A stretch of 64,000 bases of DNA from Spirochaetota bacterium (GTDB lineage Bacteria > Spirochaetota > UBA4802 > UBA5550): positions 64,077 to 128,076 of the forward strand of contig JAGNKX010000006.1 of assembly GCA_017999915.1 (NCBI GenBank). The letters run 5' to 3'. This document shows positions 5,813 to 37,319 of the stretch, in pieces; position 1 is the stretch's first letter, and every line of letters starts with the position of its first letter. The translations under genes and the position numbers were made by a program. Under the pieces are notes generated by a model. The model did no database searches, was not told where the DNA came from, and worked only from the letters and a program-made list of their open reading frames with translations.

Positions 5813-8800
5813 TTCTTGATCTCCCCGAGGGAATCAAGGGCCTCGTGGAGCTCCTTCTGGTGCCGTGTGCTTTCAAGGCGGCTCATGAGGCTGTAGGCGC
5901 AGGGGACCACGAAGAGGGTGAGGAGCGTCGACAGGAACACGCCGCCGATGACCACGACGCCCATGGGACGGGTCGTTTCCGCCCCGGGGCCGAGGGAGAG
6001 GGCCGGCGGTATGGCTGCGGCGATGGTCGCCAGCGAGGTCATTAAAATCGGCCGTAGCCGCACCGGGCAGGCGTCAAGGAGGGCCTCATGGACGTCCATG
6101 CCGGCGACGCGGCGGTGATTGGTGAAATCGACCAGCATGATGGAGTTCTTCTTCACGATCCCCATCAGGAGGAGCAGGCCGATCATGCTGTAGATGTTCA
6201 GGGATATGCCGGTCATCCTCATGGCGATGAAGGCGCCGCTGGCGCTGAAGGGCAGCGCGAGAAGGATGATGATCGGGTGCAGAAAGCTGTTGTACTGCGA
6301 CCCGAGGATCATGTAGGCCACCACGATCCCCAGGATAAGCGCGAAGATCAGGCTCTCGAAGGATTCCTTGAAGGTCTCGGAGCTTCCTGAAAAGGTGATG
6401 TGGTATTCCTGGGGGAGGACCTGCTTCGCCGTTTTCTCTATGAAGGCCAGTATGTCGGACTGGGATTTCCCCGGACCGATGTTGGCGAATATGTTGATGG
6501 CGCGCTCCCGGTTGTACCGGGTGATGGTCAGGTACGAGGGTTTTTCCGCGATATCGACGACGCTGGAGAGGGGGACCATCTCGCCGTGGATGTTCCGCAC
6601 CTTGATGCGGCTGATGTCGGTGGGCGCGCGGTTATACCGGTCCAGGAGCTTGATGCGCACGTCGTCGCGCCGTCCGGACTCGCCGGTGTACTTCGCGACG
6701 CGGAGGCTCCCCACCGAGGCGCTGATGGTGTTGGCGATGTTCGTGATAGTCACGCCGCGGTCCCTGGCCCGCTCCCGGTCCGGCGTCACCCGCACCTCCG
6801 GCATGCCGAGCTGGTAATCGGTGTCGACGTCGGTGACCAGCCCCGATTTTTCCAGCCGCTCCATCATCTTCTGGCTGTACCCGCCGAGCTTTTCCCAGTT
6901 CGGGCCCTGGACGGAGAACTGGATCGGAAAGCCGCGCTTGGCGGTAAAGCCGGCCTGGGACAGGTCCATCATGTTCGCGGTATATATGCCCGGGATCTTC
7001 CTGATTTTTTCCCTTATGAAACCCATGAATTCCTGCTGGGTGGGACGCTTCTTGAACGGGGCGGCGACGGGGCGCTCCTTGTAGTCCTTCAGGGTGATGA
7101 AGATCGTGCCCTGGTTGACCAGCCCCCCCTGGAAGCCCCCGATGTTGCCGAAGTATTTTTCCACTTCCGGCCGCTCCTTTAGCATGGCCTCGATCTTTCT
7201 GACGACCGAATCGGTGAATTCCAGCGACGAGCCGAGGGGCGTCCTTATGGTGGCGATGAAAATGCCCTGGTCCTGGGATGGCACGAACTCTTTTCGCATG
7301 CCAGGGAGCAGGAAGATGGAGGCGGCGAAGATCAGCGCGGCGGCTCCCAGCACCTTCCAGCGGTTGTCGAGGCACCGGACAAGGGCGCCCCGGTATTTCG
7401 AGGAAACGAATTCCATGAATCCGTCCATGACCCTCCCGAGCCTGGTTTCCCCGCCCTTTTGCAGCATCTGGGAGCAGCGCATCGGAGCCAGGGTCAGGGC
7501 TTCCAGGAGGGAGAGTATGACCGCCACGGAAATGGTGACGCCGAACTGAAAAAAGAACTTCCCGATGATCCCCTTCATGAACACGACCGGGATGAAGATG
7601 GCCAGGATGGCCAGGGACGCGGCCACGGCCGCGGAGGTTATCTCCCGGGCGCCCACGATGGCCGCCTTGACGCGGCTCATGCCGCTTTCGAAGTAGCGGA
7701 CGATGTTTTCCATGACCATGATGGCGTCATCCACGACGATGCCGATGACCAGGGAAAGCCCCAGGAGCGTGAAGGTGTTGAGGGTGAAGCCGAGAAAGTA
7801 GAGCACGATGAACGATCCGATGAGGGATGTCGGTATGGCCAGTATGACGTTGAAGGCGGAGCTCCACGATCCGAGAAAGAGCCAGCAGACGATCGAGGTC
7901 AGGATCACCGACAGGGTCAGGGTGAACATGAGCTCGTTGGTGGAATCCTCGATGAACTTGGTGCTGTCGAAGGAGATGTTCATCTTCATGTTCTTCGGAA
8001 GCATCCCCGAAACGTTGAGCGACTGCACCTTCTCCTTCACCTTGCGCCCCACGGCCACGGCATTGGAGCCCCGCTGCTTGATGACGCCGAGGCCGACGGC
8101 CGGCACGCCCTTGAAGCGCGCCATCCGCCTGACGTCGGCGGTCCCTTCCTCCACGGTGGCCACGTCGCCGAGCCTGATGGGCCTCCAGATCGGCTCGCCG
8201 CCGCGCCGGGTAATGATGAGCCTCTTGAATTCGTCCGGGGTCTTCGCCTCGGAAAGGACGCGGACATTGGCCTCGCGGGGACCGCTTTCTATATACCCGG
8301 AGGGGGTCAGGGTGTGCTGGCTTGATATGGTGGCGATGATGTCGTCCACGGTTATTTCCTGGCGGGCCATGCTGTCGGTGTTGAGCCATATCCGCATGTT
8401 CGGGTCCACGTAGCCGCCCATGCGCACGTCGCCCACTCCCTCGATGGTGGTGATGGCGTCCTTGAGGCGGTCGCGCAGGAAGAGCACCTTTTCCCGGGGA
8501 GACGCCGTCCCGCTCAGGGAGGTGAACATGATCGGGTTGTCCTCGGGGTTCGACTTGGTTACGATGGGCGGATCGATATCGGCGGGAAGGTTCCGCTGGG
8601 ACTGGAGGATCTTGGTCTGCACCTCCTGCAGGGCCGTGTCCACGTCGCGGGAGAGCTCGAACTCGATGGTTATGTTTGTGAGGCCCTCCATCGACGTCGA
8701 GCTGATGTTCCTGATCCCCTCGATGGTCATGACGGAATCCTCCAGCACATCGGCTATGGAGGTCTCCATGGTTTCCGGGGAGGCGCCCACCCAGGTGACG

Positions 8801-9345: not shown

Positions 9346-10836
9346 ATGAAGCTTTTTCGAATGACATATCGTACTACCCAAAAAGGCCACAGGATCCGCC
9401 TTTTTTGTGCCCCGCTACTGGGATTTCTTGCCGCTGCGCTGTTTACCGTTTCTCTTCATGCCATCGACAGCGACGTGAAAAAAATGCTCCGCGCCGCCAC
9501 CGGCGTCACCGACGAGGACGTCAGGGCGGCGTCGGGAAAAAAGGAGATCACCCTCTTCGACGCCTTCGCCCTGGCGGTGCTCAAGACCGAGCGCCTGGCC
9601 ATCGAGGGGGAGAGCGCGATCCAGGCGCAGGAGCGGAAGCTCCAGGCCATCGAGGCATGGCTCCCCTATTTTTCGCTCAGGGCGAACAAGGTCTTCCCCG
9701 ATCCGGACACCAGGCATATAAACCTGGCGCGGTCGGCCGTAAGCCTCTACCTGCGCCAGCCCATCATCACCGGCCTCAAGGAAGCTTCCCTGATCAAATC
9801 GGCGTGGTCCGACAGGAAGATCAGGGAGTACCAGCTCCATAACGGCGCGGGCCAGCTGCTGATGGACGTCGGAACGGCCTATTACTCGGTCCTCCTTCTC
9901 GAGCGCGACCTGAAAAACAACGAGGAGCTCCTCAAACTGTCCATGAAAACGGTCGGCGAGATCAGGCGCCGCGTCGATATCGGCCGGAGCAGGCAGAGCG
10001 ACCTGTTAAGGACAAACGGGCAGATATACACCCTCCAGGCGCGCATCAAGTCCCTGAGCACCGGCCTTGATCACGCGAGGCTGGTCCTGGCCGCCCTGAC
10101 CGGCATTGAGACCGAGTTTTCCCTTTCTGATTCGGTCAAGCTGAACGACCCGCCGTACACGCCCGGGGATGTCACGGCCCTCGCGGAGGCCCGCTGGGAC
10201 GTGAAGGCCGCCCGGGAGCAGAGGGAATACGCGAAGGCCGGCGTCCTCGCCGCGTACGGGGCCCATCTCCCCTCCGCGTATCTTGAAGGAAGCTACTACC
10301 TCTGGCAGGATTCTCTTTACAAGACCGATAAGACCAGGCAGCTGACGCAGCTGGCCCTTTCGTCCAATCCGGCGTCTTCGCTGCTCGGGGCGCGTCTGAA
10401 CAACGGGAACCCGACCAGGACCCGCGATTACTATTTTTCACTCGGCGCGGAGCTGCCGATCTTCGGCGGCGACATCACCTTCGCCAGGGTCCGGGAGGCC
10501 AATTCCAGGAAGCGCCAGGCCGACCTGGCATTATCGCAGGCGGTCCGTTTCGCCAGGCAGGATATCGTCGATTCGTTCCAGAACTGGGAAAGCTCGAAGG
10601 TCGAGCTCGAGGCGTACCGCAAGGCGCTGGCGTCGGCCGAGCAGAGCTACCAGGTCGTGTCGAATGAATACCGGCTGAACCAGGTGACGATCCTGGACGT
10701 GCTGACCTCGCTCACCAATCTCCAGAACGCGCGGGACGATTTCGACCGCGCCCTGCTGCAGCTCAAGCTCAACCGCATGCGCCTGGGCGTTTCCATTAAC
10801 GAGTTCACCGGCGAGAAAATCAAGTCCCTCAAGTAG
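9346..10836 (+). CDS. TolC-family outer membrane efflux protein.
   Basis: 496 aa with a signal peptide. It has two OEP repeats. It is divergent from the RND gene. Confidence 0.75.
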   Translation: MKLFRMTYRTTQKGHRIRLFCAPLLGFLAAALFTVSLHAIDSDVKKMLRAATGVTDEDVRAASGKKEITLFDAFALAVLKTERLAIEGESAIQAQERKLQAIEAWLPYFSLRANKVFPDPDTRHINLARSAVSLYLRQPIITGLKEASLIKSAWSDRKIREYQLHNGAGQLLMDVGTAYYSVLLLERDLKNNEELLKLSMKTVGEIRRRVDIGRSRQSDLLRTNGQIYTLQARIKSLSTGLDHARLVLAALTGIETEFSLSDSVKLNDPPYTPGDVTALAEARWDVKAAREQREYAKAGVLAAYGAHLPSAYLEGSYYLWQDSLYKTDKTRQLTQLALSSNPASSLLGARLNNGNPTRTRDYYFSLGAELPIFGGDITFARVREANSRKRQADLALSQAVRFARQDIVDSFQNWESSKVELEAYRKALASAEQSYQVVSNEYRLNQVTILDVLTSLTNLQNARDDFDRALLQLKLNRMRLGVSINEFTGEKIKSLK

Positions 10837-17910: not shown

Positions 17911-18107
17911 GCAGGCACCTTCCTGAATGTGCTGGATAGATTTATCATGCAACTGGTCTATAAATAGAGTAATCGCAGATATAATTCAACACAAATTTTA
18001 CCGAGCATCGGTTGCCGAGCGGAGTCGAGGCAAAATATTACTCGACACATCGAAGAACGATGATATCATGTGGTGCAGTTCAAATACCAATCGTGAAGGG
18101 GGCTGTC

Positions 18108-18458
18108 ATGGGATTCGAGTCACTCTCCGATCTGCTCGGCCGGGTCGAGGTGAGGGCTGATCTGAAAATCGGACTGGAACAGGTTTTCCGGAACGAGACC
18201 ATGAGCTTCAACGTCGGCGTCGTGCCCTTGGAGGTGCCCGACCACTATCACAAAATAAGCGACGAGATGTACTTTGTCCACGAGGGAAAGGGAAGGATGA
18301 GGCTCGGCGACGAGCACCGGGACGTGGCCGAGGGCGATTTCATCTCCATTCCCCGCGGCACGGTCCACGGCCTCGTGAAAACCGGCGGCGCCAGGATGGT
18401 CATATTCATCATAACGTCGCCGCCCTTTGACCCGGAACACGACCGCTTCACGGTGTAG
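18108..18458 (+). CDS. Cupin-domain protein.
   Basis: It has a cupin two-His/Glu motif region (HYHKISDEMYFVHEGKG...GTVHG). The start was taken at the internal MGFESL. Confidence 0.6.
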   Translation: MGFESLSDLLGRVEVRADLKIGLEQVFRNETMSFNVGVVPLEVPDHYHKISDEMYFVHEGKGRMRLGDEHRDVAEGDFISIPRGTVHGLVKTGGARMVIFIITSPPFDPEHDRFTV

Positions 18459-20004: not shown

Positions 20005-20055
20005 TTGACACCAGAACCCTACTGAATATAGTTCACATATTGAATATTATTCAAT
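20005..20055 (+). promoter_or_regulatory. Promoter of xsc. The -35 is TTGACA at 20005-20010, followed by a 16-bp spacer and a -10 TATAGT at 20027-20032. Two operators, TGAATATAGTTCA and ATTGAATA-T-TATTCAAT, overlap the -10 and the transcription start.
   Basis: Read directly. There is a perfect 8-1-8 palindrome at 20039-20055. The RBS GGAGG lies 8 bp before the ATG. Confidence 0.55.
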
Positions 20056-20080: not shown

Positions 20081-21805
20081 ATGACAAAAATGACCCCATC
20101 CGAAGCATTCGTTGAATCACTGGTAGCCGAGGGAATAACCACCACCTTTGGTATCGTCGGGAGCGCCTACATGGACGCCCTGGACCTTTATCCTACGGCG
20201 GGGATACGCTTCATTTCCGTGGCCCACGAGCAGGCTGCGGCCCATGCGGCTGACGGCCTTGCCCGGGTGACCGGCAGGCCCCAGACCTGCATCGCCCAGA
20301 ACGGGCCCGGCGCCGCAAACTTCATATCCGCCATAACCGCTGCCTTCTGGGCCCATTCGCCGGTGGTGGCCATCACCCCGGAGACAGGCAGCATGGGCAT
20401 CGGCACCGGCGGGTTCCAGGAGCTCGACCAGATGCCCTGGTTCGAGAAATGCACCAAGTTCCAGGTCCGGGTAAACCGGCCCGAGCGGATGGCGGAGCTG
20501 ACCCGCCGCTGCTTCTACATGGCAAAGCTCCTGTCCGGCCCGGTGCAGCTCAACATCCCCCGGGACTTCTACTATGGCGATTTGGACTGCGAGATATTCA
20601 AATCGGGCGACGTCAATTACGGCAGCGGCCCCGAGGGTCTGATCAAGAAAGCGGCGGAGCTCCTGGCCAAAGCGAAGAACCCGGTCATCCTCGCCGGCGG
20701 CGGCGTATCCATGGCCAACGCCATTGATGAGACAAAGGCCCTGGCGGAGTACCTTACCTCGCCGGTGGTGAACACCTATCTCCATAACGACACATTCCCG
20801 GCGGCCCACGAGCTGGCCGTGGGCCCCATCGGCTACTGCGGGTCCAAGGCGGCCATGCGCTCCATCGCGAAGGCCGACGTGGTCCTGGCACTGGGAACGC
20901 GCCTGGGGCCCTTCGGCACGCTGCCCCAGTACGACATAGCCTACTGGCCAAATTCGGCGAAGCTCATCCAGGTCGACATCGACGGCACCCAGCTGGGCGT
21001 TTCGAAGAGGATCGACCTCGGCATCGTGGCCGACGCGCGGGAGTTCGCCCTGCAGCTCCTGAAGGCCCTGAAGGCCGTCGACGGGAGCCGTCAGAAGAAC
21101 ACGGCCCGCCTGGCCGATATCGCGAAGGAAAAGGCCGCCTGGAAGGAGGAGCTCGATTCCTGGTCCTCCTCGACCAACAAGCTGATGCACCCGCGCCGCT
21201 TCATCAAGGAGCTCACCGACGCCATTCCCGACGGGTCCATCGTGGCCACGGACATCGGCAATAATTCATCAATTTGCAACAGTTACCTGAAGTTTACCGG
21301 ACCGCGCCAGCACATCTCGGCCCTCTCCTGGGGGAACTGCGGCTTCGCCTACGGGGCCGCCATGGGCGCCAAGATAGGGGCCCCGGGCACGCCGGTCTTC
21401 GCCCTCCAGGGCGACGGCGCCTACGGCATCAGCGGCCTCTCGGAAGTGATGACCGCGGTGCGGGAGAACATCCCCGTCATAGCGGTGGTCTTCAACAACC
21501 ACGAGTGGGGCGCGGAGAAAAAGAACCAGATCGACTTCTTCAAGAGCCGCTTTGTCGGCGCTGATTTATTGACGAACCCGGACTACGACCAGGTGGCGAA
21601 GGACATGGGCGCCGTCGGCTTCAAGGTGGAGAACTACGCCGACGTGAAGGACGTCGTCCGCGAGGCGGTGAAGTGCGGCAAGCCCGTGGTCATCAACGCG
21701 GTGATCGAGGGCGGCGAGAAGGTCCTGGCGGAGCCGTTCCGCCGCGACGCCTTCAAGCCGGCGGTGCGCTACCTGCCCAAGTACAAGCACCTGAGCGCCG
21801 TGTAG
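20081..21805 (+). CDS. xsc: Sulfoacetaldehyde acetyltransferase (ThDP-dependent); produces acetyl phosphate and sulfite.
   Basis: 574 aa. It has Xsc-specific stretches (GTGGFQELDQMPWFE, NIPRDFYYG, HNDTFPAAHELAVGPIGYCGSKAAMRSIAKADVVLALGTRLGPFGTLPQYDIAYWP). These match characterised Xsc far better than generic ALS. Confidence 0.85.
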   Translation: MTKMTPSEAFVESLVAEGITTTFGIVGSAYMDALDLYPTAGIRFISVAHEQAAAHAADGLARVTGRPQTCIAQNGPGAANFISAITAAFWAHSPVVAITPETGSMGIGTGGFQELDQMPWFEKCTKFQVRVNRPERMAELTRRCFYMAKLLSGPVQLNIPRDFYYGDLDCEIFKSGDVNYGSGPEGLIKKAAELLAKAKNPVILAGGGVSMANAIDETKALAEYLTSPVVNTYLHNDTFPAAHELAVGPIGYCGSKAAMRSIAKADVVLALGTRLGPFGTLPQYDIAYWPNSAKLIQVDIDGTQLGVSKRIDLGIVADAREFALQLLKALKAVDGSRQKNTARLADIAKEKAAWKEELDSWSSSTNKLMHPRRFIKELTDAIPDGSIVATDIGNNSSICNSYLKFTGPRQHISALSWGNCGFAYGAAMGAKIGAPGTPVFALQGDGAYGISGLSEVMTAVRENIPVIAVVFNNHEWGAEKKNQIDFFKSRFVGADLLTNPDYDQVAKDMGAVGFKVENYADVKDVVREAVKCGKPVVINAVIEGGEKVLAEPFRRDAFKPAVRYLPKYKHLSAV

Positions 21806-21824: not shown

Positions 21825-23018
21825 ATGAAGGTCCTGGTGATCAACGCGGGAAGCAGTTCCCTGAAATTCCAGGTCCATGACGGAGACGCCGGGGCCATGG
21901 TCGTCAAGGGCCATTACCTCGATATCGGCGAGACCTCCGCGGACCGCGCCTGCGTGCGGAAGATAACCGCTCGGGGCGCGGAGGAGAAGACGGAGATGGC
22001 GGTCAGGGACCACCGCTCCGCCATCCTTGACATGCTGGGGCTCCTCGAATCGAGGGGCGCCGCTTCCGGCCGGTGCGGCATCTCCGCCGTCGGCCACCGC
22101 ATCGTCCACGGCGGCGAGCGCTACAGCGCGGCCGCGCGGATCACGGCGGACGTGCGGGACTACCTCGAGTCGATATCGTTTCTCGCTCCGCTCCATAATC
22201 CAGTCGGCCTCGCCTGCGTCGACGAGATCGCGGCGTCGCTGCCGGACCTGCCGCAGTACGCCATCTTTGACACGGCCTTTCACCGGACCATCCCGGAGAC
22301 GGTCTACCTCTACGGGCTCCCGATGGAGCTCTACACGAAATACGGCATACGGAAATACGGCTTCCACGGCACCAACCACAAGTACGCGGCGCACCGGGCC
22401 GCGGAGATCATGGGCCGGGACATAGCCTCCCTGAGGATCATAACCTGCCACCTGGGCAACGGCCAGAGCGTCTGCGCCGTGAAACGGGGTCAGAGCGTGG
22501 ACACCTCCATGGGGTTCACCCCCCTGGAGGGCCTGCCGATGGGGACGCGGAGCGGCTCCTTCGACCCGGCCATAATCTTTTTCCTGATAGACCAGGGCTA
22601 CGAACCGGACGAGATCAGGACCATGGTCAACAAGCGGTCCGGACTCCTCGGCGTGTCCGGGATCAGCAGCGACTTCAAGGTCCTGGAGGAGAGGGCGCGG
22701 GGCGGGGATGAAAACGCCAAGCGTGCCGTCGATATGCTCGCCAACCGCATCACCTGCCTGATCGGAGCCTACACGGCGGAAATGTCCGGGGCCGACGCCA
22801 TCGTGTTCACCGGCGGCATCGGGGAGAATTCGGCGTTTTTGCGGAAGGAAGTTCTGGGCGCCCTGGCCCATACGGGCCTCGCCGTCGACGACAGGGCCAA
22901 TGAGGCCCATGATGAAGTGATCACCGCGCCGGGAAGCGCGGTCACGGCCCTGGTGATACCCGCGGACGAGGAGCTTCAGATCGCGCGGGAAGTGATCGGG
23001 GCGATCGAGGGACAATGA
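21825..23018 (+). CDS. ackA: Acetate kinase.
   Basis: 397 aa. It has MKVLVINAGSSSLKFQ and HRIVHGG motifs. It is 19 bp after xsc with its own RBS. Confidence 0.9.
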   Translation: MKVLVINAGSSSLKFQVHDGDAGAMVVKGHYLDIGETSADRACVRKITARGAEEKTEMAVRDHRSAILDMLGLLESRGAASGRCGISAVGHRIVHGGERYSAAARITADVRDYLESISFLAPLHNPVGLACVDEIAASLPDLPQYAIFDTAFHRTIPETVYLYGLPMELYTKYGIRKYGFHGTNHKYAAHRAAEIMGRDIASLRIITCHLGNGQSVCAVKRGQSVDTSMGFTPLEGLPMGTRSGSFDPAIIFFLIDQGYEPDEIRTMVNKRSGLLGVSGISSDFKVLEERARGGDENAKRAVDMLANRITCLIGAYTAEMSGADAIVFTGGIGENSAFLRKEVLGALAHTGLAVDDRANEAHDEVITAPGSAVTALVIPADEELQIAREVIGAIEGQ

Positions 23019-23361
23019 TACCAGGAGATGTCAGATAGAGACTTTTCGGTACGAATACCAGGGTCTTTGAAATTTCAACGGGCAAAAGGAAACCTCGCAG
23101 TCGCAGAGGGGATCGCCCTGGGGCGGAGGGGACTGGTCCTGTCCCCCGCTTCTATCCCTGACCCACCGGGCGGCCTCTTCCTCGGTGTCGGCGAACCCGG
23201 CGCTGAAAATAATCTCGCTTTTGCAGTGCCGGTAGCCATAGATAAGCTCATATCGTTCCTTCATGGCTGGTCGATTTCTCCCCTGGTTTCCTCGATCAAT
23301 ATCCCCGGGAAGAGCTTCCGGTAAACAATGCTTCTTTTATCGACACCGGGCCCTTTTTGTA

Positions 23362-23425
23362 TTGACAGGGGAAGAGTTGTCCGACATAGTCTCATATAAT
23401 GAATATTATTCATAATATGAATATA
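23362..23425 (+). promoter_or_regulatory. Promoter of the SDR operon. The -35 is TTGACA at 23362-23367, followed by 17 bp and a -10 CATAGT (there is also a TATAAT at 23395-23400). Operators are ATGAATA-T-TATTCAT at 23399-23413 and an extra ATGAATAT half-site at 23418-23425.
   Basis: Read directly. It has the same TGAATA-T-TATTCA core as the xsc operator. Confidence 0.5.
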
Positions 23426-23517
23426 ATTTATTGCAAGCAGTTTATTATGGCAGCGGCAAAAAAAGCGAAAATCCGGGTTGTGCGGCATCGACGGCATGAC
23501 CCTTCAGGAGAACAATC

Positions 23518-24354
23518 ATGATGACAGATCTCAAAGGAAAGACGGCCCTGGTCACCGGGGCCGGAAAAAAGACCGGCATGGGCTATGCCATGGCGCGCAA
23601 GCTGGCCTCGTTTGGAACCAATGTAATCATTGCGGACCTGGGGGGAGCGGCCCCGGCGGGCGCCCAGGTCGCCACGGGCACGACCGCGGATATGCAGGAG
23701 ATCGCCGAGTCCCTCGGCAGGGAATTCGGCGTCAGGACCATGGCCGTACCGGTGGACGTGTCAAGCACCGAGTCCGTCGCCGCCATGGCGGAGGCGGTGA
23801 AGGGGAAATTCGACCATGTGGACATCCTCTGCAACAACGCCGGCGCCTCCTTCGGCGTCCCGGCCGCGGTCCATACCTATGACGAGGCGGCGTGGATGAG
23901 GACCGTGGACATCAACCTCCACGGCGTCTTCCGGGTCTCCCGGGCCATGCTTCCCCTCATGCTGGGAAAGCCGGCCAGCATCGTGAACAACGCCTCGCGG
24001 GCCGGCAAGTTTCCCCCGGTCATGAACGGGGCCTACGCGGTGGCCAAGGCCGGGGTGATCATGCTCACCAAGGTGATGGCCAAGGAGCTGGCCGGAGCCG
24101 GCGTGCGCGTCAACGCCATCTGCCCCGGCCAGATCATGACCGACCTGGAGCGGTGGCGCTTCGGGCTGGAGGCGAAGGTCTTCCAGACGACGGCTGAGGA
24201 GCGCGAGAAGGAGATGTGCAAGACGATACCCCTGGGACGCATCGGCACCCCGGAGGAGGTGGCGAACCTGACGGCGTTCCTCGCCTCGGAGGCGTCGTCG
24301 TACATGACCGGCCAGGCGATCAACGTCACCGGCGGGCAATTAATGGAATTGTAA
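23518..24354 (+). CDS. SDR-family oxidoreductase (FabG/IsfD-like).
   Basis: 278 aa. It has TGAGKKTGMG, NNAG and YAVAK motifs. Confidence 0.85.
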   Translation: MMTDLKGKTALVTGAGKKTGMGYAMARKLASFGTNVIIADLGGAAPAGAQVATGTTADMQEIAESLGREFGVRTMAVPVDVSSTESVAAMAEAVKGKFDHVDILCNNAGASFGVPAAVHTYDEAAWMRTVDINLHGVFRVSRAMLPLMLGKPASIVNNASRAGKFPPVMNGAYAVAKAGVIMLTKVMAKELAGAGVRVNAICPGQIMTDLERWRFGLEAKVFQTTAEEREKEMCKTIPLGRIGTPEEVANLTAFLASEASSYMTGQAINVTGGQLMEL

Positions 24355-24456: not shown

Positions 24457-26151
24457 ATGGAAAAGATGATCGGCGGAAGACTTGCCGCGGAAGCCCTTAT
24501 AGAACGCGGCGTGAAGTATATTTTTACCATAAGCGGCGGACACATAACCCCGGTTTATGAATTTCTCGAGAATACCAGCGTGAAGCTGTTTTGCACGCGC
24601 CACGAGCAGGCGGCGGTCTTCATGGCCGAAGCCATGGCGCGCATGACGCGGCAGCCCGCCGTGGCGATGGTGACCGCGGGGCCCGGCTTCACCAACGCCC
24701 TCACGGGGATCGCCAGCGCCCGCCTCGCCAACGCGCCGGTCATTCTCATCTCGGGCATCGTGGGTCTGGAGATGTCGGAGAAGCTTGACCTCCAGGACAT
24801 GGTCCAGCTCCCCGTGATCCAGCCGATGGTGAAAAAGGCCCTGGTGTGCAACAACGTCGAGCGGATACCTGAATTCATCGATATGGCCTTCCGGTACGCC
24901 ATGCAGGGGCGTCCCGGACCGGTGTACCTGGAGATACCCGTGGACGTGCTGAACGCGAAGCCCGACATGGGCAAGGTAAAGAAATACCAGAGCACCATCG
25001 TGTCGAAGACCGTGGACACGGCGGCGGCGGAAAAGATCGTGGACATGCTCGGCCAGGCGAAGAAGCCGATCGTCATAGCCGGGAGCGGCGCCTGGTGCGC
25101 CGACGCCGGTCCGGAGCTCGTATCGTTTGTCGAGAAGACGGGAATGCCCGCCATGACCATGGCCGGCGCCCGCGGCCTTATCCCCGACACGCACCCACTC
25201 TGCTTTGAATCGGCCCTGGCCATCCGGCCGGGGGCGGCCCTGGTGGCCGACACCCAGGCGGACCTTGTCCTCTTCCTCGGATCGCGTCTGAGCCTTTTTT
25301 TCATTTTCGGGGGCATCTTCAACCCGAACGCCAAGTTCATACAGGTCGACATCGAGGCGGAGGAGATCGGACGGAACCGTTCCGTGGACCTCGGCGTGGT
25401 GAGCGATATCAAGATGCTGCTGGCGGAGATCAACCGGATCATCGACGCCCGGAAGCTCGGGCCGTCCCTCGTGAAGCAGTACGCGGAATGGGTGGAGGCG
25501 GTCAAGGCCGCGGACGCCAACGGCAAGGCCCAGGCGAAGCCGATGTGGGAAAAGGAGGGAGCGCCGATCCATCCGATGCGGCTGGCCCATGAGATCAACA
25601 AGTTCATGGACCGCGAGGACGACATCGTCGTGGCCGACGGCGGGGACACCACCACCTGGATGGGGATGACCCGCACCGTGCGCCGGCCGGGGCATTATCT
25701 CGATTACGGCCTCTTCGGCAGCCTGGCCGTGGGCATACCCTACGCCAACGCGGCCAAGCTCATCAATCCGGACAAGCGGGTTCTCCTGGTCATCGGCGAC
25801 GGGGCCGCGGGATTCAACTTCATGGAGTTCCACACCGCCATCCGGCACAACATTCCGATCGTGGTGGTCGTGGCCAACGACACCCTCTTCGGCATGATCG
25901 CCCACAGCCAGCAGATCCGCCTCGGCCACGCCATCAAGGACGGGACCGACCTGGGCATGGTCAATTACGAGAAGATGGTGGAGGCACTGGGCGGCTTCGG
26001 CGCCTTTGTCGACAAGCCAGAGGACATCCGGCCGGCCATCGAGGCGGCCTTCAAGTCCGGCAAGACCGCCTGTATCAACGTGATGGTCGATCCGTCGACG
26101 ATCAGTCCGGGCAGTGTGGCCCTGGCCAACCTGGGGGCGTACAAGGCCTAA
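24457..26151 (+). CDS. ThDP-dependent enzyme of the 2-hydroxyacyl-CoA lyase / oxalyl-CoA decarboxylase (HACL/Oxc) subfamily.
   Basis: 564 aa. YIFTISGGHITPV, RHEQAAVFMAEAMARMT...AGPGFTNALTG and GRPGPVYLEIPVDVL align with HACL1/Oxc rather than with Xsc or ALS. Confidence 0.65.
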   Translation: MEKMIGGRLAAEALIERGVKYIFTISGGHITPVYEFLENTSVKLFCTRHEQAAVFMAEAMARMTRQPAVAMVTAGPGFTNALTGIASARLANAPVILISGIVGLEMSEKLDLQDMVQLPVIQPMVKKALVCNNVERIPEFIDMAFRYAMQGRPGPVYLEIPVDVLNAKPDMGKVKKYQSTIVSKTVDTAAAEKIVDMLGQAKKPIVIAGSGAWCADAGPELVSFVEKTGMPAMTMAGARGLIPDTHPLCFESALAIRPGAALVADTQADLVLFLGSRLSLFFIFGGIFNPNAKFIQVDIEAEEIGRNRSVDLGVVSDIKMLLAEINRIIDARKLGPSLVKQYAEWVEAVKAADANGKAQAKPMWEKEGAPIHPMRLAHEINKFMDREDDIVVADGGDTTTWMGMTRTVRRPGHYLDYGLFGSLAVGIPYANAAKLINPDKRVLLVIGDGAAGFNFMEFHTAIRHNIPIVVVVANDTLFGMIAHSQQIRLGHAIKDGTDLGMVNYEKMVEALGGFGAFVDKPEDIRPAIEAAFKSGKTACINVMVDPSTISPGSVALANLGAYKA

Positions 26152-26241: not shown

Positions 26242-27534
26242 ATGATGAACGGTCAAAGCGGTACCCATGAATACAAATTATCCAGGGGGTATACGAACTA
26301 TGTTTTCATCCTCCTGTTCCTCCTCTACTTCTTCGACTACGTGGACCGCATGGTGGTCACGTCGCTCTTTCCCTATATCAAGGAGGAGTGGGCCATCTCC
26401 GACGCCCAGTGCGGCATGCTGGTGTCCGCCATCTACTGGTCCATTATCATATTCACCATTCCGGCGTCGGTGCTGGTAGACCGCTGGAGCCGGAAGAAGA
26501 CCATCGGACTCATGGCGGTCATCTGGAGCATCGCCACCGCCGTGTGCGCCCTTACCAAGAATTTCGGCCAGCTCTTTGCCGCGCGGGGCGTCATCGGGGT
26601 GGGCGAGGCCGGGTACGCGCCGGGCGGCACCGCCATGCTCGCGGGCCTCTACCCGGAGGAAAAGCGGTCGAGGATGATGGGCATCTGGAACGCCTCCATA
26701 CCGCTGGGAAGCGCCGTGGGCATAGCCCTGGGCGGCATTATAGCCAAGGAGTTCGGATGGCGCCACGCCTTCGGCCTGGTCGCCCTGCCGGGCCTGATCG
26801 TGGCGATCCTCTTCTTTTTCGTCAAGGATTACAAGACCGTGGAGCTGGTCAAGACCGCGGATGTTGGCGGTTCCAAGGTCGCCATGAGCAAGATGGACAT
26901 ATTCAGGGAATTCATCCACACCCCGTCGCTCATCTTCACCTATTTCGGCTTCGCGGCCATGACCTTCGTGACCACGTCGCTCATCACCTGGCTCCCGACC
27001 TTCTTCCACCGCGTCTATGAACTGCCCATGGACCAGGCGGGAATGAAGGGGGGCTCGGTAATGCTCCTTGCGCTGGTGGGCGCGCCGGTGGGCGGGCTCC
27101 TCGCGGACCTGTGGCTGAAGAAAAGAAAGAACGCCCGCCTTGTGTTCTCGTCGATCGTGGCGGTCCTTTCCGCGATCTTTCTCGGATCGGGGCTGCTCTT
27201 CTTTACCGGCAACATGCAGTACGTACTCATACTGCTCATGGGCCTGGTGGTGGTCGCCTTCGTGCCGGCCGCGGCCGCGGTGACCCAGGACGTGGTGCAC
27301 CCCGGACTCCGGGCCATATCCTACGCCCTGTGCGTCATAGTGCAGAATCTTCTGGGCTCTTCCATGGGGCCCATCGTGGTAGGCTCCATTTCCGACGGCT
27401 ATAACATACAGACGGCCCTCTCCATTCTGCCGATATTCCTGCTCGTCGCGGCGGCGCTTTTCTTCGTGGCTTCGTTGTTCTACGAGCGGGACCTGGACAA
27501 GGTGGAAAAGGTGACGCTGGAAGTGGAGGGCTGA
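26242..27534 (+). CDS. MFS transporter.
   Basis: 430 aa with 12 predicted TM segments. It has an MFS signature (GRWSRKKT, GVGEAGYAPGG). Confidence 0.8.
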   Translation: MMNGQSGTHEYKLSRGYTNYVFILLFLLYFFDYVDRMVVTSLFPYIKEEWAISDAQCGMLVSAIYWSIIIFTIPASVLVDRWSRKKTIGLMAVIWSIATAVCALTKNFGQLFAARGVIGVGEAGYAPGGTAMLAGLYPEEKRSRMMGIWNASIPLGSAVGIALGGIIAKEFGWRHAFGLVALPGLIVAILFFFVKDYKTVELVKTADVGGSKVAMSKMDIFREFIHTPSLIFTYFGFAAMTFVTTSLITWLPTFFHRVYELPMDQAGMKGGSVMLLALVGAPVGGLLADLWLKKRKNARLVFSSIVAVLSAIFLGSGLLFFTGNMQYVLILLMGLVVVAFVPAAAAVTQDVVHPGLRAISYALCVIVQNLLGSSMGPIVVGSISDGYNIQTALSILPIFLLVAAALFFVASLFYERDLDKVEKVTLEVEG

Positions 27535-27544
27535 GATGTGAAGA

Positions 27545-27667
27545 CCCTCACCCCCCCGTCCCCCTCTCCCATTAAAAACTGGAGAAAGGAGAGGGGGAGC
27601 ATATAGAGTAGCCCTCTCCTTTTTTCCAAGCTTCATGGGAGAGGGCGCGCCGGAGACGGGGTGAGGG
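27545..27667. mobile_element. MITE-like repeat, copy B (short version of the element at 9074-9248).
   Basis: The terminal inverted repeats are CCCTCACCCCCCCGTC ... GACGGGGTGAGGG. The CCCTCTCC...GGAGAGGG core is shared with copy A. Confidence 0.6.
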
Positions 27668-27775
27668 AAAAAAAGATTCAACGCGGAGGCGCTGATGAGT
27701 AATCCGTCCTCTGCGACTCAGCGTTGATAAAGCGGTTGATCGCACACTATTGTGAAGTGGTGAAGGTGACAAGGC

Positions 27776-28591
27776 ATGATAGAACACGAACAATTCAACA
27801 ACAAGATCGTCGCCGTGACCGGCGGGGCCAGCGGCATCGGCGAGGCGCTGTGCCGCAGGTTCGGTAAGGCCGGGGCGAAAGTGGCGGTCATCGACATGGA
27901 CGGCAGGGGCGCTGACAGGCTGGCCGGCGAGCTGAAAGACGGCGGGATCGAGGCGGCCGGGTTCGCCTGCGATGTCAGCAAGCAGAAGGAGTGCGAGGCC
28001 GTTATCGGAGCGATCATCAAGCGCTGGGGCGGCATCGACGTGCTGGCGGTGAACGCCGGGATCACCCAGCGGAGCCCCTTCGTGGACACGGACCCGGCCG
28101 TATACCGGCGCGTCATGGACATCAATTTCTTCGGGGCCCTTTATTGCGCAAAGGCGGCCATAAAAGACTTGATCGCGAGAAAGGGTGTGATAGTGGTGAC
28201 ATCAAGCCATGCCGGCTACAGCCCCCTACTCGGAAGGACCGGATACAGCGCGAGCAAGCACGCCCTCCACGGGCTCTTTGAGAGCCTGCGTACGGAGGTG
28301 AGGCCCCTGGGCGTCCATGTCATGATGGTCTGCCCCGGCTTCACGAAGACCAATCTCCAGACAAGGGCCCTCGGGTCGAACGGTACGGTGACGACGCACC
28401 CGCAGTCGAGGGTGGGCAAACAGGACACCCCGGGCCATGTGGCCGAGGCCGTGTTCCGTGGAACGGTGCAGCGCAAGAACATCATCGTGCTGACCACGGT
28501 GGGAAAGCTCACCTATTACCTGCACCGCCTGGCGCCGGCGCTGTACGAACGGCAGATGGCCAAAAAATTACGTTCGGAGATCGAACGGTAA
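27776..28591 (+). CDS. SDR-family oxidoreductase.
   Basis: 271 aa. It has VTGGASGIG, NAG and YSASK motifs. Confidence 0.85.
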   Translation: MIEHEQFNNKIVAVTGGASGIGEALCRRFGKAGAKVAVIDMDGRGADRLAGELKDGGIEAAGFACDVSKQKECEAVIGAIIKRWGGIDVLAVNAGITQRSPFVDTDPAVYRRVMDINFFGALYCAKAAIKDLIARKGVIVVTSSHAGYSPLLGRTGYSASKHALHGLFESLRTEVRPLGVHVMMVCPGFTKTNLQTRALGSNGTVTTHPQSRVGKQDTPGHVAEAVFRGTVQRKNIIVLTTVGKLTYYLHRLAPALYERQMAKKLRSEIER

Positions 28592-28600
28592 AAACAGAGA

Positions 28601-29236
28601 GTGAGACCAATGGGATCACAGGAACGCAGGGAACGGGAAAAGGAAGAGAGAAAGAACCACATCCTCAAGGCGGCGCGGACGCTTCTCCTGAAAAAAGGGC
28701 TCCACGCCACCACGGTCAACCAGATCGCCAAGCTCTCCGAGCTGAGCGTGGGCACCATATACCTCTATTACCACAACAAGGAAGATATTTTCGCGGCGCT
28801 CCAGGAGGAGGGGCTGGCAATGCTGAACGACCAGATAGGGAAGGCCGTGGCGGCGGCGTCCTCCCCGAAGGAGAAGATCAAGGCGGTCGCCCTGGGGTAT
28901 CTCGAGTTCAGCGAAAAGCAGAAGAACTACTACGACATCATCACCTATTTTCTATCGACGCCGGAGCAGCTTTTTCCGCCGCGCCTGAAGAACAGGGTCG
29001 ACAAGACCGGCGGCAGGATCCTCGGCTTCTGCACCGAGGCGATCGAGGCGGGAATGAAGTCAGGCGAATTCAGGAAGGTCAACGCGCGGCGCCACACCAT
29101 CTGGCTCTGGGGCATGCTCCACGGCCTGATCCAGTTCAGGAAGATGGAGAAGACCATCCTCCAGAAAGAGAGCTACACCTCCCTGGTGCAGTACGCCCTC
29201 GAGAATTACCTGAAGACCCTGGCCCCGGAAAAGTAA
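28601..29236 (+). CDS. TetR-family transcriptional regulator.
   Basis: 211 aa. It has an HTH (ATTVNQIAKLSELSVGTIYLYYHNKEDIF). It is 9 bp after the SDR. Confidence 0.8.
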   Translation: MRPMGSQERREREKEERKNHILKAARTLLLKKGLHATTVNQIAKLSELSVGTIYLYYHNKEDIFAALQEEGLAMLNDQIGKAVAAASSPKEKIKAVALGYLEFSEKQKNYYDIITYFLSTPEQLFPPRLKNRVDKTGGRILGFCTEAIEAGMKSGEFRKVNARRHTIWLWGMLHGLIQFRKMEKTILQKESYTSLVQYALENYLKTLAPEK

Positions 29237-29263: not shown

Positions 29264-30865
29264 TTAAAGGTCCCACTTGATGATAGGGGCCTTGACGTCC
29301 ACCATGGCGTTGACGATGAGCTCGACGAGCCCGCCGTAGGCCATCCCCGATTTTTCCCGTACCCCGTAATAATCGAAGAGGTCCCTGATCTGTCCCTTGC
29401 AGTTGGAGCAGGGAGCGCACAGGTATTTTTTTGTATCCGGACCGGGGCAGTCGGCAAAGGCCTCCAGTATCTGCCGGAGCTTCATCCTCCCCGCCACGCT
29501 CACACGCCAGTCCCGGAAGTTGTTCTGGCCCATAATGGCGAAGCCGCTCCCGCCGCCGCAGCAGTAGTTATCCGCGCCGTGGGGCTCCATCTCGCGGAAC
29601 TGCGGGCAGAGCTTCCGGATGATGCGGCGCTGGGGCTCCACGATGCCCAGGTTCCGCACGATGTTGCACGGGTCGTGGAGGGTCACCGGGAAGTCGTTCT
29701 TCGACGGGTCGAAGGCGATCCGGCCGCCCATGACGATCTCCTCCAGGAAGGTGAGGGAGCTCTCCCGGGGGATGTTCAGGTCTCCGGTGAGGATGCGGTC
29801 CGCTATGGTTATCAGGGCCTTGTGGGCGTGGCCGCACTCGCCGAGAATCACTTTCTTGACCTTGAGCTTCTTCGCGGCCTCCATGTGCTTCATCACGATG
29901 CGGGAGAGCTGCACGTCGTCGTAGAAGAGGCCGTAGTTCACGCTGTCGTAGGCGGGTGCCTCGGACGACAGGGTCCAGCTCACGCCGGCCGCGTTCAGGA
30001 TGATGGCGAAGGCGGCAGGATTCTCAGGCCAGGCCAGGATCTCGCCAGCGTTGTGCATGAGGAGCACGTCGGCGCCCTCTTTGTCCCAGGGCGTTTCGAT
30101 GGTTATGCCCAGCTCCTCGGACAGGTCCTCGTCGAGGAAGTCGACGTTGTCTTTCACCACGTTCGGCTTCATGCCGGTGGATGATCCGACCGCGAGTTGG
30201 AGCACAGTTCCCTTCTCGTGGAGCTCCTTCGGCGCCCAGCCGAGCTCCTGGCTGAAGAGCTTGCGGAGCTCCCTGGTCACCAGGGCGTTGTCGAGGCCCA
30301 TGGGGCAGGCCTGGGCGCAGCGCCGGCAGAGGGTGCACCGGTATGAAAGCTCGTAAAGGCGGCTCACCGCGGTCCAGTTCAGGTCGATATCCTCGAGCCT
30401 GAGCTTCGCCATGATCCCGCCGCCGGGTCTCGCGTATTTTTTAACCAGCCGCCGGAACACCTCGGAGCGGTACGTGGGGCGGTAGATCTCGTTCCCGCCG
30501 CTTTCGCGGTAGATCGGGCAGGCCTGGGAGCAGGTCTGGCACCGGGCGCAGTAGTCTATCGTGAGGAGGAGCGGCTGGAGGAAGGTCCAGTTGTTCTCCC
30601 GCGATAGGAGCTTTTGGAGCCCGGCGATGAAAGCTTCGACGACGCGCCGCTCATCGGCCGCGTCCTTCGGCTTCGGAAGGGAGAGGGCCGCCACGCCGTC
30701 GAGGTCGCAGGCAATGGTGTTGCGCTGGTCGTCGCTGAGCTTTTTCCATCCGGGCTGGTCCTCGATCCGGTCATAGGGAGGCGGGAGGGGAAGGAGGTCG
30801 TTGACGTTTATCTCGGTGAGGGGCGCCTCGCCCCTGCTTATATCTTTGATCCCTGTTTTTTTCAT
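29264..30865 (-). CDS. DsrK/HdrD-like iron-sulfur protein (paralog). It has two ferredoxin CxxCxxCxxxCP motifs plus a C-terminal CCG domain.
   Basis: 533 aa. It has CARCQTCSQACP, CTLCRRCAQACP and ...YCCGGGSG. It is a paralog of the DsrK at 34085-35710. Confidence 0.7.
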   Translation of the reverse strand: MKKTGIKDISRGEAPLTEINVNDLLPLPPPYDRIEDQPGWKKLSDDQRNTIACDLDGVAALSLPKPKDAADERRVVEAFIAGLQKLLSRENNWTFLQPLLLTIDYCARCQTCSQACPIYRESGGNEIYRPTYRSEVFRRLVKKYARPGGGIMAKLRLEDIDLNWTAVSRLYELSYRCTLCRRCAQACPMGLDNALVTRELRKLFSQELGWAPKELHEKGTVLQLAVGSSTGMKPNVVKDNVDFLDEDLSEELGITIETPWDKEGADVLLMHNAGEILAWPENPAAFAIILNAAGVSWTLSSEAPAYDSVNYGLFYDDVQLSRIVMKHMEAAKKLKVKKVILGECGHAHKALITIADRILTGDLNIPRESSLTFLEEIVMGGRIAFDPSKNDFPVTLHDPCNIVRNLGIVEPQRRIIRKLCPQFREMEPHGADNYCCGGGSGFAIMGQNNFRDWRVSVAGRMKLRQILEAFADCPGPDTKKYLCAPCSNCKGQIRDLFDYYGVREKSGMAYGGLVELIVNAMVDVKAPIIKWDL

Positions 30866-30868
30866 TAT

Positions 30869-31765
30869 CTATTTCCCCTGAGCGATATCGATCCAATTTT
30901 TTGAGCCCTCCGATCCGACATGGGGAGCGGACCATCGGACCGGTTGGCCGAGCAGCTTTTTTATCTTCTCTTCAGCGGCCGCGTCCATGGGGCTATCGTC
31001 CCAGAGGACGCTGTGAAAGGTGAAGAATTTCGCGGCAAAGTGCCTCATGGAGGTGAAGGGAAGCACGGCCAGGAAGAAGAGGACCGCGCCGATGTGCGCC
31101 GCCCCTGCCCGTGACAGTGAAATATGCGAATCGGCCCTGAATACCGCTTCGATGAAGTCCCTGATCTGGGAGGCCAGGTCGCCGTCCGCGACCAGGGAGG
31201 ACACGCCCGTGGCGAAAAGGGCCAGCAGGATGATCAGGTTCAGGTAGGCCGAGATCCCGGAGTAGGAGCGGAGGTCCCGGCGCACCGCCCGCAGCACCAG
31301 CAGCGACAGTGACCCGGCGAGGCCGAAGAGGTAGCCAATGGTGCCGAGGAAAACGGCTATTCCTTCGAGGAAAGCCGCGGCGGAAGAGAACCCGGCCGCG
31401 TCGACAGCGGCGGCGGCCGCCAGGCACAGCGCCATGAAGAAGATGAAGTAGATGCCGCCATGGAGGGCCATCGAAAAGGGCCAGAGCCGCCTGTGTCCCT
31501 TCCATACGGTGTGGAGAAGGAAAATTTCCTTCATCATATAAATGATTTCATGAATTATGGAGCGCTCCCGGGGCTTCATCCACCAGTCCTGCACCTCGAA
31601 ATAAGAGCCTCCGTAGGATGAGCCGGCCCTGTCATGGGGCACCGGCGCGAGCTCCCACCGGAGATGGGCCGGTAGGCGGGCGATGCGGACAATGCACGCC
31701 GCGATGCCTGCGATGAAGATTGCGATAGATGAGTAAGCGGCAATGAGCCAGATTGTTCCGTTCAT
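30869..31765 (-). CDS. DsrM/NarI-like membrane cytochrome b (paralog); the likely partner of the preceding DsrK-like gene.
   Basis: About 299 aa from the internal MNGTIWL start, which has an RBS. It is a polytopic membrane protein. Confidence 0.6.
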   Translation of the reverse strand: MNGTIWLIAAYSSIAIFIAGIAACIVRIARLPAHLRWELAPVPHDRAGSSYGGSYFEVQDWWMKPRERSIIHEIIYMMKEIFLLHTVWKGHRRLWPFSMALHGGIYFIFFMALCLAAAAAVDAAGFSSAAAFLEGIAVFLGTIGYLFGLAGSLSLLVLRAVRRDLRSYSGISAYLNLIILLALFATGVSSLVADGDLASQIRDFIEAVFRADSHISLSRAGAAHIGAVLFFLAVLPFTSMRHFAAKFFTFHSVLWDDSPMDAAAEEKIKKLLGQPVRWSAPHVGSEGSKNWIDIAQGK

Positions 31766-31782
31766 GGGTCCTCCAGGGTGCG

Positions 31783-32931
31783 TCAATCTCTCCGCCGCAC
31801 CGCGGCTGTTATCTTGAAGAGCAGGGTAAGGATGAAAAGCCCCGTTGCCCACACGCCGAGGGTGATGAATACTTCGGCCAGGGTGGGCCGGTACGACGGT
31901 ATCTTCTCGAGGGGATCGGGGATGAATCCTCCCACCACGAAGCCGAGGCCCTTCTCGATCCACACGGAGGCGAACACGGCGATGGCCGCGATAAGAAGGC
32001 CCGCGTCGCGCCGCCGCGCCGGCGTGTAGAGAATCGCCAAGGCGGCGACTGCCAGGGCTATGGAAATCCACATATAGGGCGTGAGCGACGAGGGATCACC
32101 CCAGCCCCAGAAGAGCCGCTCCAGCGGCGCCCGGTGCGTGGGGATGCCGCTGTAGAGGGCGGTGAATATTTCGAGAATAATGAAAAAGACATGGGCGCTG
32201 AAGGCGTAGGTGATGATGGTCCCCAGGGAGCGCTCGGGCCGGTCGCCCGGGTCGAAATCCGTATAGCGCCGCGCCACGCGGCAGAGCACGATGAGGAGGG
32301 CCGGGCCGGAGGAAAAGGCCGACGCCAGGAAGCGCGCCGCCGTGATGGCCGTGAGCCAGAGGTGCCGCCCCGGGAGCCCCGCGTACAGGAAGGCGGTCAC
32401 GGTGTGGATGCTGATCGCCCAGGGGATCGACAGGTAGATGACCGGCTTCACCCAGGCGGGCGGCGGCGTTCCCCGGTGCTCGGCCGTGAGGACCGTCCAC
32501 CCGATCAGGATGTTGATTACCAGGTATAGGGAAAGGACCACCGTGTCCCAGAACATGGGGGACGTCGGCGACGGATAGAGTATGACGTGGAGTATCCGGA
32601 AGGGCTGTCCCAGGTCGACGAAGATAAAGAGAAGGCACATGACGACCGCGGACACCGCCAGGAATTCCCCCAGGATCGTGATCCTGCCGAAGGCCCGGTG
32701 GTCGTGGAGGTAGTAGGGGAGCACCACCGTCACGGCCGAGGCGGCCACGCCCACCAGGAAGGTGAACTGGGCGATGTAGAGGCCCCAGGACACGCTCCGG
32801 GACATGCCGGTAACGGAAAGACCCTCTGTTGTCTGTTTAAAGTAAAAGAATATCCCCGCTGCGATGAAGAGGCCCAGTGCCAGGAGAAGGAGCCAGTAGC
32901 GCCGCGGGCCATGGAACACTTTTTCTATCAT
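31783..32931 (-). CDS. dsrP: DsrP (NrfD/PsrC-family integral membrane subunit).
   Basis: About 382 aa from MIEKVFHGP (GAGG RBS upstream). It has 10 predicted TM helices and the NrfD family pattern. It is the last gene of dsrMKJOP. Confidence 0.75.
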   Translation of the reverse strand: MIEKVFHGPRRYWLLLLALGLFIAAGIFFYFKQTTEGLSVTGMSRSVSWGLYIAQFTFLVGVAASAVTVVLPYYLHDHRAFGRITILGEFLAVSAVVMCLLFIFVDLGQPFRILHVILYPSPTSPMFWDTVVLSLYLVINILIGWTVLTAEHRGTPPPAWVKPVIYLSIPWAISIHTVTAFLYAGLPGRHLWLTAITAARFLASAFSSGPALLIVLCRVARRYTDFDPGDRPERSLGTIITYAFSAHVFFIILEIFTALYSGIPTHRAPLERLFWGWGDPSSLTPYMWISIALAVAALAILYTPARRRDAGLLIAAIAVFASVWIEKGLGFVVGGFIPDPLEKIPSYRPTLAEVFITLGVWATGLFILTLLFKITAAVRRRD

Positions 32932-32938
32932 GGAATCC

Positions 32939-37262: not shown

Positions 37263-37319
37263 TTCAGTGAATGGCCCCTAGATTGGTGATATCGATATTA
37301 AATTTTGAGGAGGTGACCC

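Follow-up and report, generated by a model that had tools for sequence, protein, structure and literature searches.

The palindromic sequences at the promoters of the sulfoacetaldehyde acetyltransferase gene, xsc, and of a neighbouring gene cluster in an uncultured Spirochaetota MAG are probably operators of a TetR-family repressor encoded at the same locus (28610-29236, plus strand), referred to here as TetR1. Sequence comparison confirms the palindrome as a real and conserved site, predicted to bind a repressor. Within the window, the whole 64,000-nucleotide stretch analysed, the same site also occurs at the promoters of dsrAB, dsrC and a chemoreceptor gene.

In the window, xsc (20081-21805; TIGR03457, 749.6 bits against a cutoff of 676.4; NF005713, 830.9 against 620) is followed by ackA (21825-23018; a match to TIGR00016) and then by a cluster composed of SDR1 (23518-24354), a ThDP enzyme most like 2-hydroxyacyl-CoA lyase or oxalyl-CoA decarboxylase (24457-26151), an MFS transporter (26242-27534), SDR2 (27776-28591) and TetR1. 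All are on the plus strand; the four genes from SDR1 to SDR2 were assigned from Pfam, NCBIfam and PDB matches. The xsc-ackA unit and the SDR cluster both have strong sigma-70-like promoters and TGAATATTATTCA is present as a perfect copy downstream of each, at 20041 and 23400. The xsc-ackA promoter includes a -35 TTGACA (20005-20010), a 16-nt spacer and a -10 TATAGT (20027-20032), scores 11/12 in a promoter scan and has both hexamers kept among relatives. Its first predicted operator site, TGAATATAGTTCA (20023-20035), is an exact core lying on top of the -10. The second, TGAATATTATTCA (20041-20053, about +2 to +14), is located 18 bp from the first and is included in a perfect 17-bp palindrome, ATTGAATATTATTCAAT (20039-20055). 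The promoter of the SDR cluster (10/12 in the scan) has TTGACA at 23362 and, after a spacer of 17 nt, CATAGT, the last base of which is 23390. Here, the first predicted site, TGAATATTATTCA (23400-23412, about +4 to +16), falls within the perfect palindrome ATGAATATTATTCAT (23399-23413) and the second, TGAATATAATTTA (23418-23430), with one mismatch to the core, follows 18 bp after it. The predicted operators thus overlap -10/+1 at xsc and cover +4 to +34 at the SDR cluster. A preliminary description of this DNA had read both promoters and their palindromes correctly, as re-reading of the sequence and the promoter scan indicate. The extra sequence which it had called a third half-site at the SDR promoter does exist but is a degenerate full site, TGAATATAATTTA, the weaker member of a pair, rather than a half-site.

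Alignment of related loci defines the core of the motif as TGAAY-N3-RTTCA, usually flanked by A and T to give ATGAAY-N3-RTTCAT: two ATGAAT-type half-sites, 9 bp apart, around an unconstrained centre. As the central 3 bp are free to vary, the true motif is of the 6-3-6 type. Each of the 72 distinct sites reads GAA-N5-TTC; A predominates at position -7, with no TG at -8/-7. The argument that such copies are improbable by chance is borne out by shuffling. With up to two mismatches, TGAATANTATTCA is matched nine times in the 64-kb window where 0.84 matches are expected, a number reached in none of 100 shuffles. Exact TGAAY-N3-RTTCA cores number six (20023, 20041, 23400, 37236, 42335 and 44116) against an expected 0.093, with a maximum of two in 300 composition-preserving block shuffles of the window. 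All six are within promoter regions and the seven sites with at most one mismatch are all intergenic, in a window whose intergenic share is 8.9%. Nor is the motif scattered over AT-rich spacers: a pattern search of the window confines it to five promoter regions. The predicted operators are tandem pairs in a fixed register. When the window and the xsc loci L001-L080 are considered together, 40 pairs have an 18-bp start-to-start distance while every other spacing from 13 to 30 is represented by 0-7 pairs.

The arrangement at xsc is conserved. In 17 Spirochaetota loci whose Xsc proteins are 80-94% identical, the region upstream of the gene is organised as TTGACA, about 11 nt, site 1, 5 nt and site 2, with the -10 inside site 1, and this tandem layout is kept even where the promoter is shifted some 100 bp further from the ATG. 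In individual loci, site 1 of xsc is kept in L001-L006, L012 and L013, and site 1 of the SDR cluster in L001-L005, L012 and L013. Conservation in these 17 loci, together with the position over -10/+1, upholds the proposal that an operator is common to the start of both transcription units. We take the layout, as judged from these alignments, to be a protein-binding footprint at the promoter and not the result of drift in an AT-rich spacer. An explanation at the RNA level, in which the palindromes are 5'-UTR hairpins, or one in which they are mere AT-rich promoter sequence with no specific binder, appears highly improbable. It is true that the xsc and SDR sites run into the predicted transcripts and that their folded leaders are slightly stabler than shuffled sequences (z ~ -1.8), but these z-scores are not significant and an Rfam search of the window returned no match. 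Moreover, variation is free in the centre and absent from the half-sites, the 18-bp register persists without compensatory changes, the dsr sites described below are located upstream of the predicted transcription starts and no sites were found in the other AT-rich spacers of the window.

Desulfomonilaceae-type loci carry another palindrome, GACTGG-N4-CCAGTC, before xsc, just downstream of a TTGAC promoter (L017 ~6010-6030, L020 ~9930-9950, L021 ~6830-6850). Only a distant TetR-like HTH is found near these sites, which apparently represent a different operator and regulator for xsc.

TetR1 is a protein of 208 aa present as a single copy in the window. It includes a PF00440 helix-turn-helix domain at residues 21-67 (51.4 bits against a cutoff of 24). 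Its C-terminal matches to TetR_C_33 (24.4 bits) and TetR_C_24 (22.7 bits) are both slightly under the cutoffs, and its homologues carry precomputed PF13305 and PF17932 assignments. Every annotation source gives 'TetR/AcrR family' and nothing finer. The gene had been placed from 28601, but its true start is probably the ATG at 28610, the same Met being used by orthologues and by independent gene calls.

Every TetR1-containing operon examined has a site at its head, regardless of gene order, and no gene other than TetR1 is shared by the four operon types bearing the site. The first type, SDR1-ThDP-MFS-SDR2-TetR1, is that of the window and is found in Spirochaetota. The second, from Desulfobacterota, comprises single operons which include xsc and are either TetR1-first or SDR1-first. 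The third, aminotransferase-glyoxalase-TetR1, occurs in one group of Spirochaetota contigs, where the sole exact site in 16.7 kb lies immediately upstream of the operon; in L172 this site lies 7 nt past a TTGACA. The fourth, SDR1-SDR2-TetR1, comes from another locus and its promoter is a near-copy of that of xsc (TTGACA, 14 nt, TGAATATAGTTCA, 5 nt and a weak site). Operons of the third type (L161 6203-9038, L168 and L172) encode a class-III aminotransferase, nearest to GSA-aminomutase models yet under their cutoffs, and a glyoxalase-fold protein, and are adjoined by a short gene of the TauE (sulfite-exporter) family. These operons may constitute an amine-sulfonate branch of the TetR1 regulon.

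The recognition helix of TetR1 provides a second line of evidence. The best solved relatives of the protein are the FadR proteins of B. halodurans and B. subtilis (E ~1e-10), FadR also being the best NCBIfam relative, and the alignment with FadR reaches residue 173 of TetR1. The GTIYLY recognition helix of Bacillus FadR (YsiA; PDB 5GP9/5GPC, 3WHB) is identical to that of TetR1. The FadR-DNA crystal structure shows each monomer recognising ATGA(A/G)T by means of the Gly and Tyr in this helix, alpha3 (PMC5397183); this half-site corresponds to the ATGAAY found here. Helix and operator also change together. Desulfobacterota orthologues have ELGVGTIYFY in place of ELSVGTIYLY, and their operator is TCGAAY-N3-RTTCGA. 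RTTCGA half-sites accompany all nine orthologues with G/F-type substitutions (ELGVGT-YFY in eight and EIGVATIYFY in L060), and RTTCA half-sites accompany orthologues with ELSVGTIYLY, including the outlier L054, which has a Desulfobacterota-type Xsc. The covarying Ser/Gly residue aligns with Ala40 of FadR, which contacts DNA. Comparison lends good support to the suggestion that the TetR gene encodes the binder, through four operon architectures, operator/helix covariation, a helix identical to that of FadR and a shared ATGAAT half-site. Nothing was found in favour of the ArsR/SmtB-type operator that had been proposed as an alternative.

Other candidates encoded in the window are less suitable. 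The helix of a second TetR protein (3360-3962), HPSLIIHYF, is unrelated, and no site lies close to its gene. A MarR protein (53818-54255) likewise has no site in its vicinity, and a 148-aa cupin (18012-18458) was found to have no HTH.

It is also conceivable, but in our opinion unlikely, that the motif is bound by an unlinked global regulator, such as a sensor from another family (redox, sulfite or iron-sulfur) or a TetR1 paralogue whose gene lies beyond the window, and that the neighbouring TetR is unrelated to it. Five Spirochaetota xsc loci (L007, L014-L016 and L019) carry the operator without TetR1 inside 10 kb, which speaks for such a regulator. Their xsc neighbours are lipases, an epimerase and TamB, and the ~200-aa proteins examined as possible adjoining regulators are GDSL lipases. 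Other Spirochaetota genomes do encode TetR1 orthologues with this helix; look-ups for an orthologue in the MAGs of the five loci led to different assemblies (JAGODA01, SCSX01 and DATIKU01). The reach of the motif to dsrAB, dsrC and the chemoreceptor gene is more 'global' than that of a typical local TetR, the dsr sites lie upstream of the -35, and the GTIYLY helix also occurs in FadR-like proteins, which leaves room for an unseen paralogue as the binder. Against this, the motif follows TetR1 through four otherwise unrelated operon contexts, it covaries with the TetR1 recognition helix, its half-site is the one used by the closest characterised TetR relatives, and neither the second TetR nor MarR, the remaining DNA-binding proteins identified in the window, is close to a site. 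TetR1 remains the preferred binder.

The dsr genes of the window include dsrA (37320-38486) and dsrB (38508-39566) on the plus strand, assigned from Pfam NIR_SIR and NIR_SIR_ferr, and dsrC on the minus strand (41933-42250; Pfam DsrC, 2.3e-38). A gene for a methyl-accepting chemotaxis protein (MCP; Pfam MCPsignal) is located at 42413-44026, also on the minus strand. Between the regulator and dsrAB (29264-36683) are two pairs of DsrK-like and DsrM/NarI-like genes and one NrfD-like gene; no operator core was found at the other intergenic gaps of this gene set. Occurrence of dsr genes in Spirochaetota MAGs is already known from surveys (PMC10591310).

The sites at these genes lie 17-24 kb downstream of those noted earlier at the xsc and SDR promoters. 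Between the divergent promoters of dsrAB and of a dsrMK-like operon is a perfect palindrome of 41 bp, TGTCAATTAAAAAATGAAT-GGT-ATTCATTTTTTAATTGACA (37222-37262). Its centre is the core TGAATGGTATTCA (37236-37248), with A/T tracts on each side, and its ends are the two -35 TTGACA sequences (37257-37262 on the plus strand and 37227-37222 on the minus strand). A weak partner site lies beside the core at 37254-37266. The predicted operators of dsrC and the chemoreceptor gene are both upstream of minus-strand promoters. That of dsrC includes a strong TGAACGGTATTCA (42335-42347) and a weak partner (42317-42329) which holds the -35 of its promoter (42315-42310), and that of the chemoreceptor gene a strong TGAACGGTATTCA (44116-44128) and a weak partner (44098-44110). 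The two share an identical 33-nt module of operator and -35 (42317-42349 and 44098-44130). In L081, the closest relative, dsrC and the gene that comes next have no chemoreceptor gene between them. A copy of the dsrC promoter module thus seems either to have come in with the MCP gene or to have been gained by it, and the chemoreceptor copy looks like a duplication of this module. All four dsr-type promoters have in common the unit ATGAAyNNNATTCATTTTTTAATTGACA, with the weak site, 18 bp off, containing the -35. The centre of the strong site is near -49, which places it upstream of the -35 in an A/T-rich, UP-like tract.

Sites at dsrA and/or dsrC promoters are kept in six related loci. L081 (DsrA 92% identical) and L082 (86%) retain the 41-bp palindrome, with the 3-bp centre flipped in L082. 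In L094 (DsrA 77%) a single site overlaps the -10 of the dsrA promoter, and in L091 a tandem follows TTGACA upstream of dsrA and a further site is present at dsrC. Sites on the dsrC side are found in L081, L091, L119 and L122, those of L119 and L122 being 18-bp tandems. L094 and L122 have TetR1 orthologues that adjoin dsr genes, and in L122 a site and a chemoreceptor gene come next after the orthologue. Since the same core is found at the dsrAB, dsrC and chemoreceptor promoters and is kept in relatives, the regulon probably couples sulfite release to sulfite reduction.

The distinctive organisation of the dsr-type promoters could reflect two related proteins, with TetR1 acting on the AT-centred tandems of xsc and the SDR cluster and another factor, possibly an activator, acting on the dsr-type module. 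The A-tract-flanked ATGAAyGGTATTCAT is fixed 15 bp upstream of the -35 at dsrAB, dsrC and MCP; the longer unit keeps a constant spacing to the -35 at four promoters; the 41-bp perfect palindrome is kept in L081 and L082; and a centre near -49 fits an activator. We nevertheless consider this quite improbable. Centres of the GGT, ACC and GGC type are also found in operators directly heading TetR1 operons (L009 9048, L011 720, L161 6203 and L172 4210), and the 'dsr-type' centre is thus not a separate motif. In addition, the dsrA/dsrC sites of the more remote relatives L094, L091, L119 and L122 are in repressor positions or form 18-bp tandems, and the L122 TetR1 orthologue is located among dsr genes, adjoining the site-bearing MCP gene.

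Judged by sequence, the system is one which resembles a classic TetR repressor/operator pair and is nearest to Bacillus FadR in both protein and half-site. FadR is an acyl-CoA-responsive repressor of the TetR family that places two dimers on one operator (PMC5397183), as may also be the case here. TetR1 is not a FadR orthologue (NF053878, 61.9 bits against a cutoff of 200). FadR recognises a 6-4-6 motif (a 16-bp inverted repeat) in overlapping repeats offset by ~4-5 bp, in contrast to the 6-3-6 motif (15 bp) present here as separate sites 18 bp apart. Its regulon is that of fatty-acid beta-oxidation, whereas the sites described here are at xsc, ackA, the SDR/ThDP/MFS genes, dsrAB, dsrC and MCP, and a long-chain acyl-CoA is an unlikely effector of TetR1. 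As with QacR/IR1 and TetR/tetO, the operator is a palindrome of ~15 bp overlapping a promoter or transcription start. Its odd-length, 15-bp symmetry recalls tetO, the predicted two dimers per operator recall QacR, and release by an inducer is presumed here. Unlike these systems, the half-site has another sequence, the tandem sites are non-overlapping and the genes are catabolic and respiratory rather than those of an efflux pump.

In Proteobacteria, taurine and xsc genes are known to be regulated by TauR, of the MocR/GntR family (PMC5320631). TauR also controls xsc-containing sulfonate operons, but belongs to another protein family, and the motif here is a TGAAY inverted repeat. The scanned genes of the cluster included no MocR or GntR gene, and literature searches revealed no TetR regulator of xsc or dsr genes. 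Rex, a redox repressor which acts on sulfate-reduction genes in Desulfovibrio, binds the operator TTGTGAA-N4-TTCACAA. Its sites resemble ours in having TGAA/TTCA half-sites at energy-metabolism promoters. The Rex operator, however, is of even length, with 4 nt between GAA and TTC against the 5 nt that separate them in every distinct site here, and its flanking TG/CA is not conserved in our sites; a Rex operator is rejected on this spacing.

We propose that each 15-bp site would accommodate one TetR1 dimer and each operator consequently two, which would jointly block RNA polymerase binding or promoter escape and so repress transcription. With an offset of 18 bp, the dimers would not lie on one face of the helix, and so their cooperativity is only hypothetical. 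At the dsr promoters, we favour repression by occlusion of the UP/-35 region, possibly helped by the weak partner site; activation is the alternative, and the position near -49, unusual for a TetR repressor, would also suit it. A pathway metabolite would free the repressor. TetR1 accompanies several upstream modules (SDR/ThDP/MFS, aminotransferase and glyoxalase-fold, SDR-SDR) as well as dsr genes, and our best, speculative, guesses for the ligand are sulfoacetaldehyde or sulfite because these are the only intermediates common to the different TetR1 operon types. Release would simultaneously induce sulfonate import and conversion, Xsc-catalysed C-S cleavage, AckA-dependent ATP formation, the reduction of sulfite through DsrAB/DsrC, and the chemoreceptor; if an inducer from the pathway releases the dimers, sulfite production and reduction would therefore start together. 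As the last gene of the SDR operon, TetR1 is probably autoregulated, and a weak internal promoter (27724-27753) may provide its basal expression. In its most complete form, which we put forward tentatively as a possibility, TetR1 would be a FadR-like master switch for organosulfonate respiration in uncultured Spirochaetota. It would sense sulfoacetaldehyde or sulfite and coordinate substrate uptake and conversion, C-S cleavage (xsc), substrate-level phosphorylation (ackA), the dsr system (dsrAB, dsrC and the divergent dsrMK-like operon) and the chemoreceptor. This would occur through two operator architectures: tandem sites on -10/+1 for the catabolic genes and, for dsr, a fixed module of site, A-tract and -35 which may be activating.

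The SDR1/ThDP/transporter/SDR2 set is syntenic with xsc in many Desulfobacterota and Spirochaetota (loci L025-L076 and the window) and looks like an uncharacterised route to sulfoacetaldehyde. PDB 8Y7S/8Y8M (a ThDP protein) are among the matches of the ThDP enzyme and 8Y7R/8Y83 (an SDR) among those of SDR2, in neither case as top match. No paper describing an SDR/ThDP pathway was found in a literature search that included the codes 8Y7S, 8Y7R, 8Y8M and 8Y83. The possibility that SDR2 is IsfD-like was discarded, no such match being present among solved structures. The 240-nt spacer between the MFS gene and SDR2 (27535-27775) contains C-rich/G-rich inverted repeats, CCCCCTCTCC...GGAGAGGGGG and GCCCTCTCC...GGAGAGGGC, and the weak promoter-like match at 27724-27753 is located before SDR2; the spacer may comprise a terminator or attenuator and, beyond it, an internal promoter serving SDR2-TetR. 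Between ackA and the SDR cluster, the minus strand includes a conserved Cys-rich ORF of 77 aa with no Pfam match (23031-23264; MKERYELIYGYRHC...DPLCDCEVSFCPLKFQRP), and the plus-strand ORF at 23028-23324 is probably spurious. In L008-L011, homologues of the Cys-rich ORF lie in the interval from xsc to the ThDP gene; that of L025 is within the operon. It was rejected as the regulator: it is missing from the aminotransferase-TetR1 and SDR-SDR-TetR1 operons, both of which have the site. Elsewhere in the window, GC content falls to 0.43 at 50001-51000, against ~0.60 for the window, in a segment which includes just small, low-GC3 ORFs.

Control of dissimilatory sulfite reductase and of organosulfonate respiration, sources of H2S in guts, digesters and sediments, is poorly known in anaerobes. 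The regulators described for xsc belong to other protein families. The prediction made here is precise: a 208-aa TetR protein, a 31-bp tandem operator and five target promoters, together with a Ser/Gly and Leu/Phe pair in the recognition helix (residues 46 and 52, counted from the Met at 28610) which is predicted to change specificity and is paired with TGAA and CGAA operators. The TetR1/operator pair could become a biosensor for the inducer of the pathway, and a conserved, uncharacterised SDR/ThDP/MFS route feeding Xsc is flagged in Desulfobacterota and Spirochaetota. What is new is a predicted regulon that links promoters for sulfonate breakdown with those for sulfite reductase and, if this is true, the pair would be among the first predicted for dsrAB outside model sulfate reducers.
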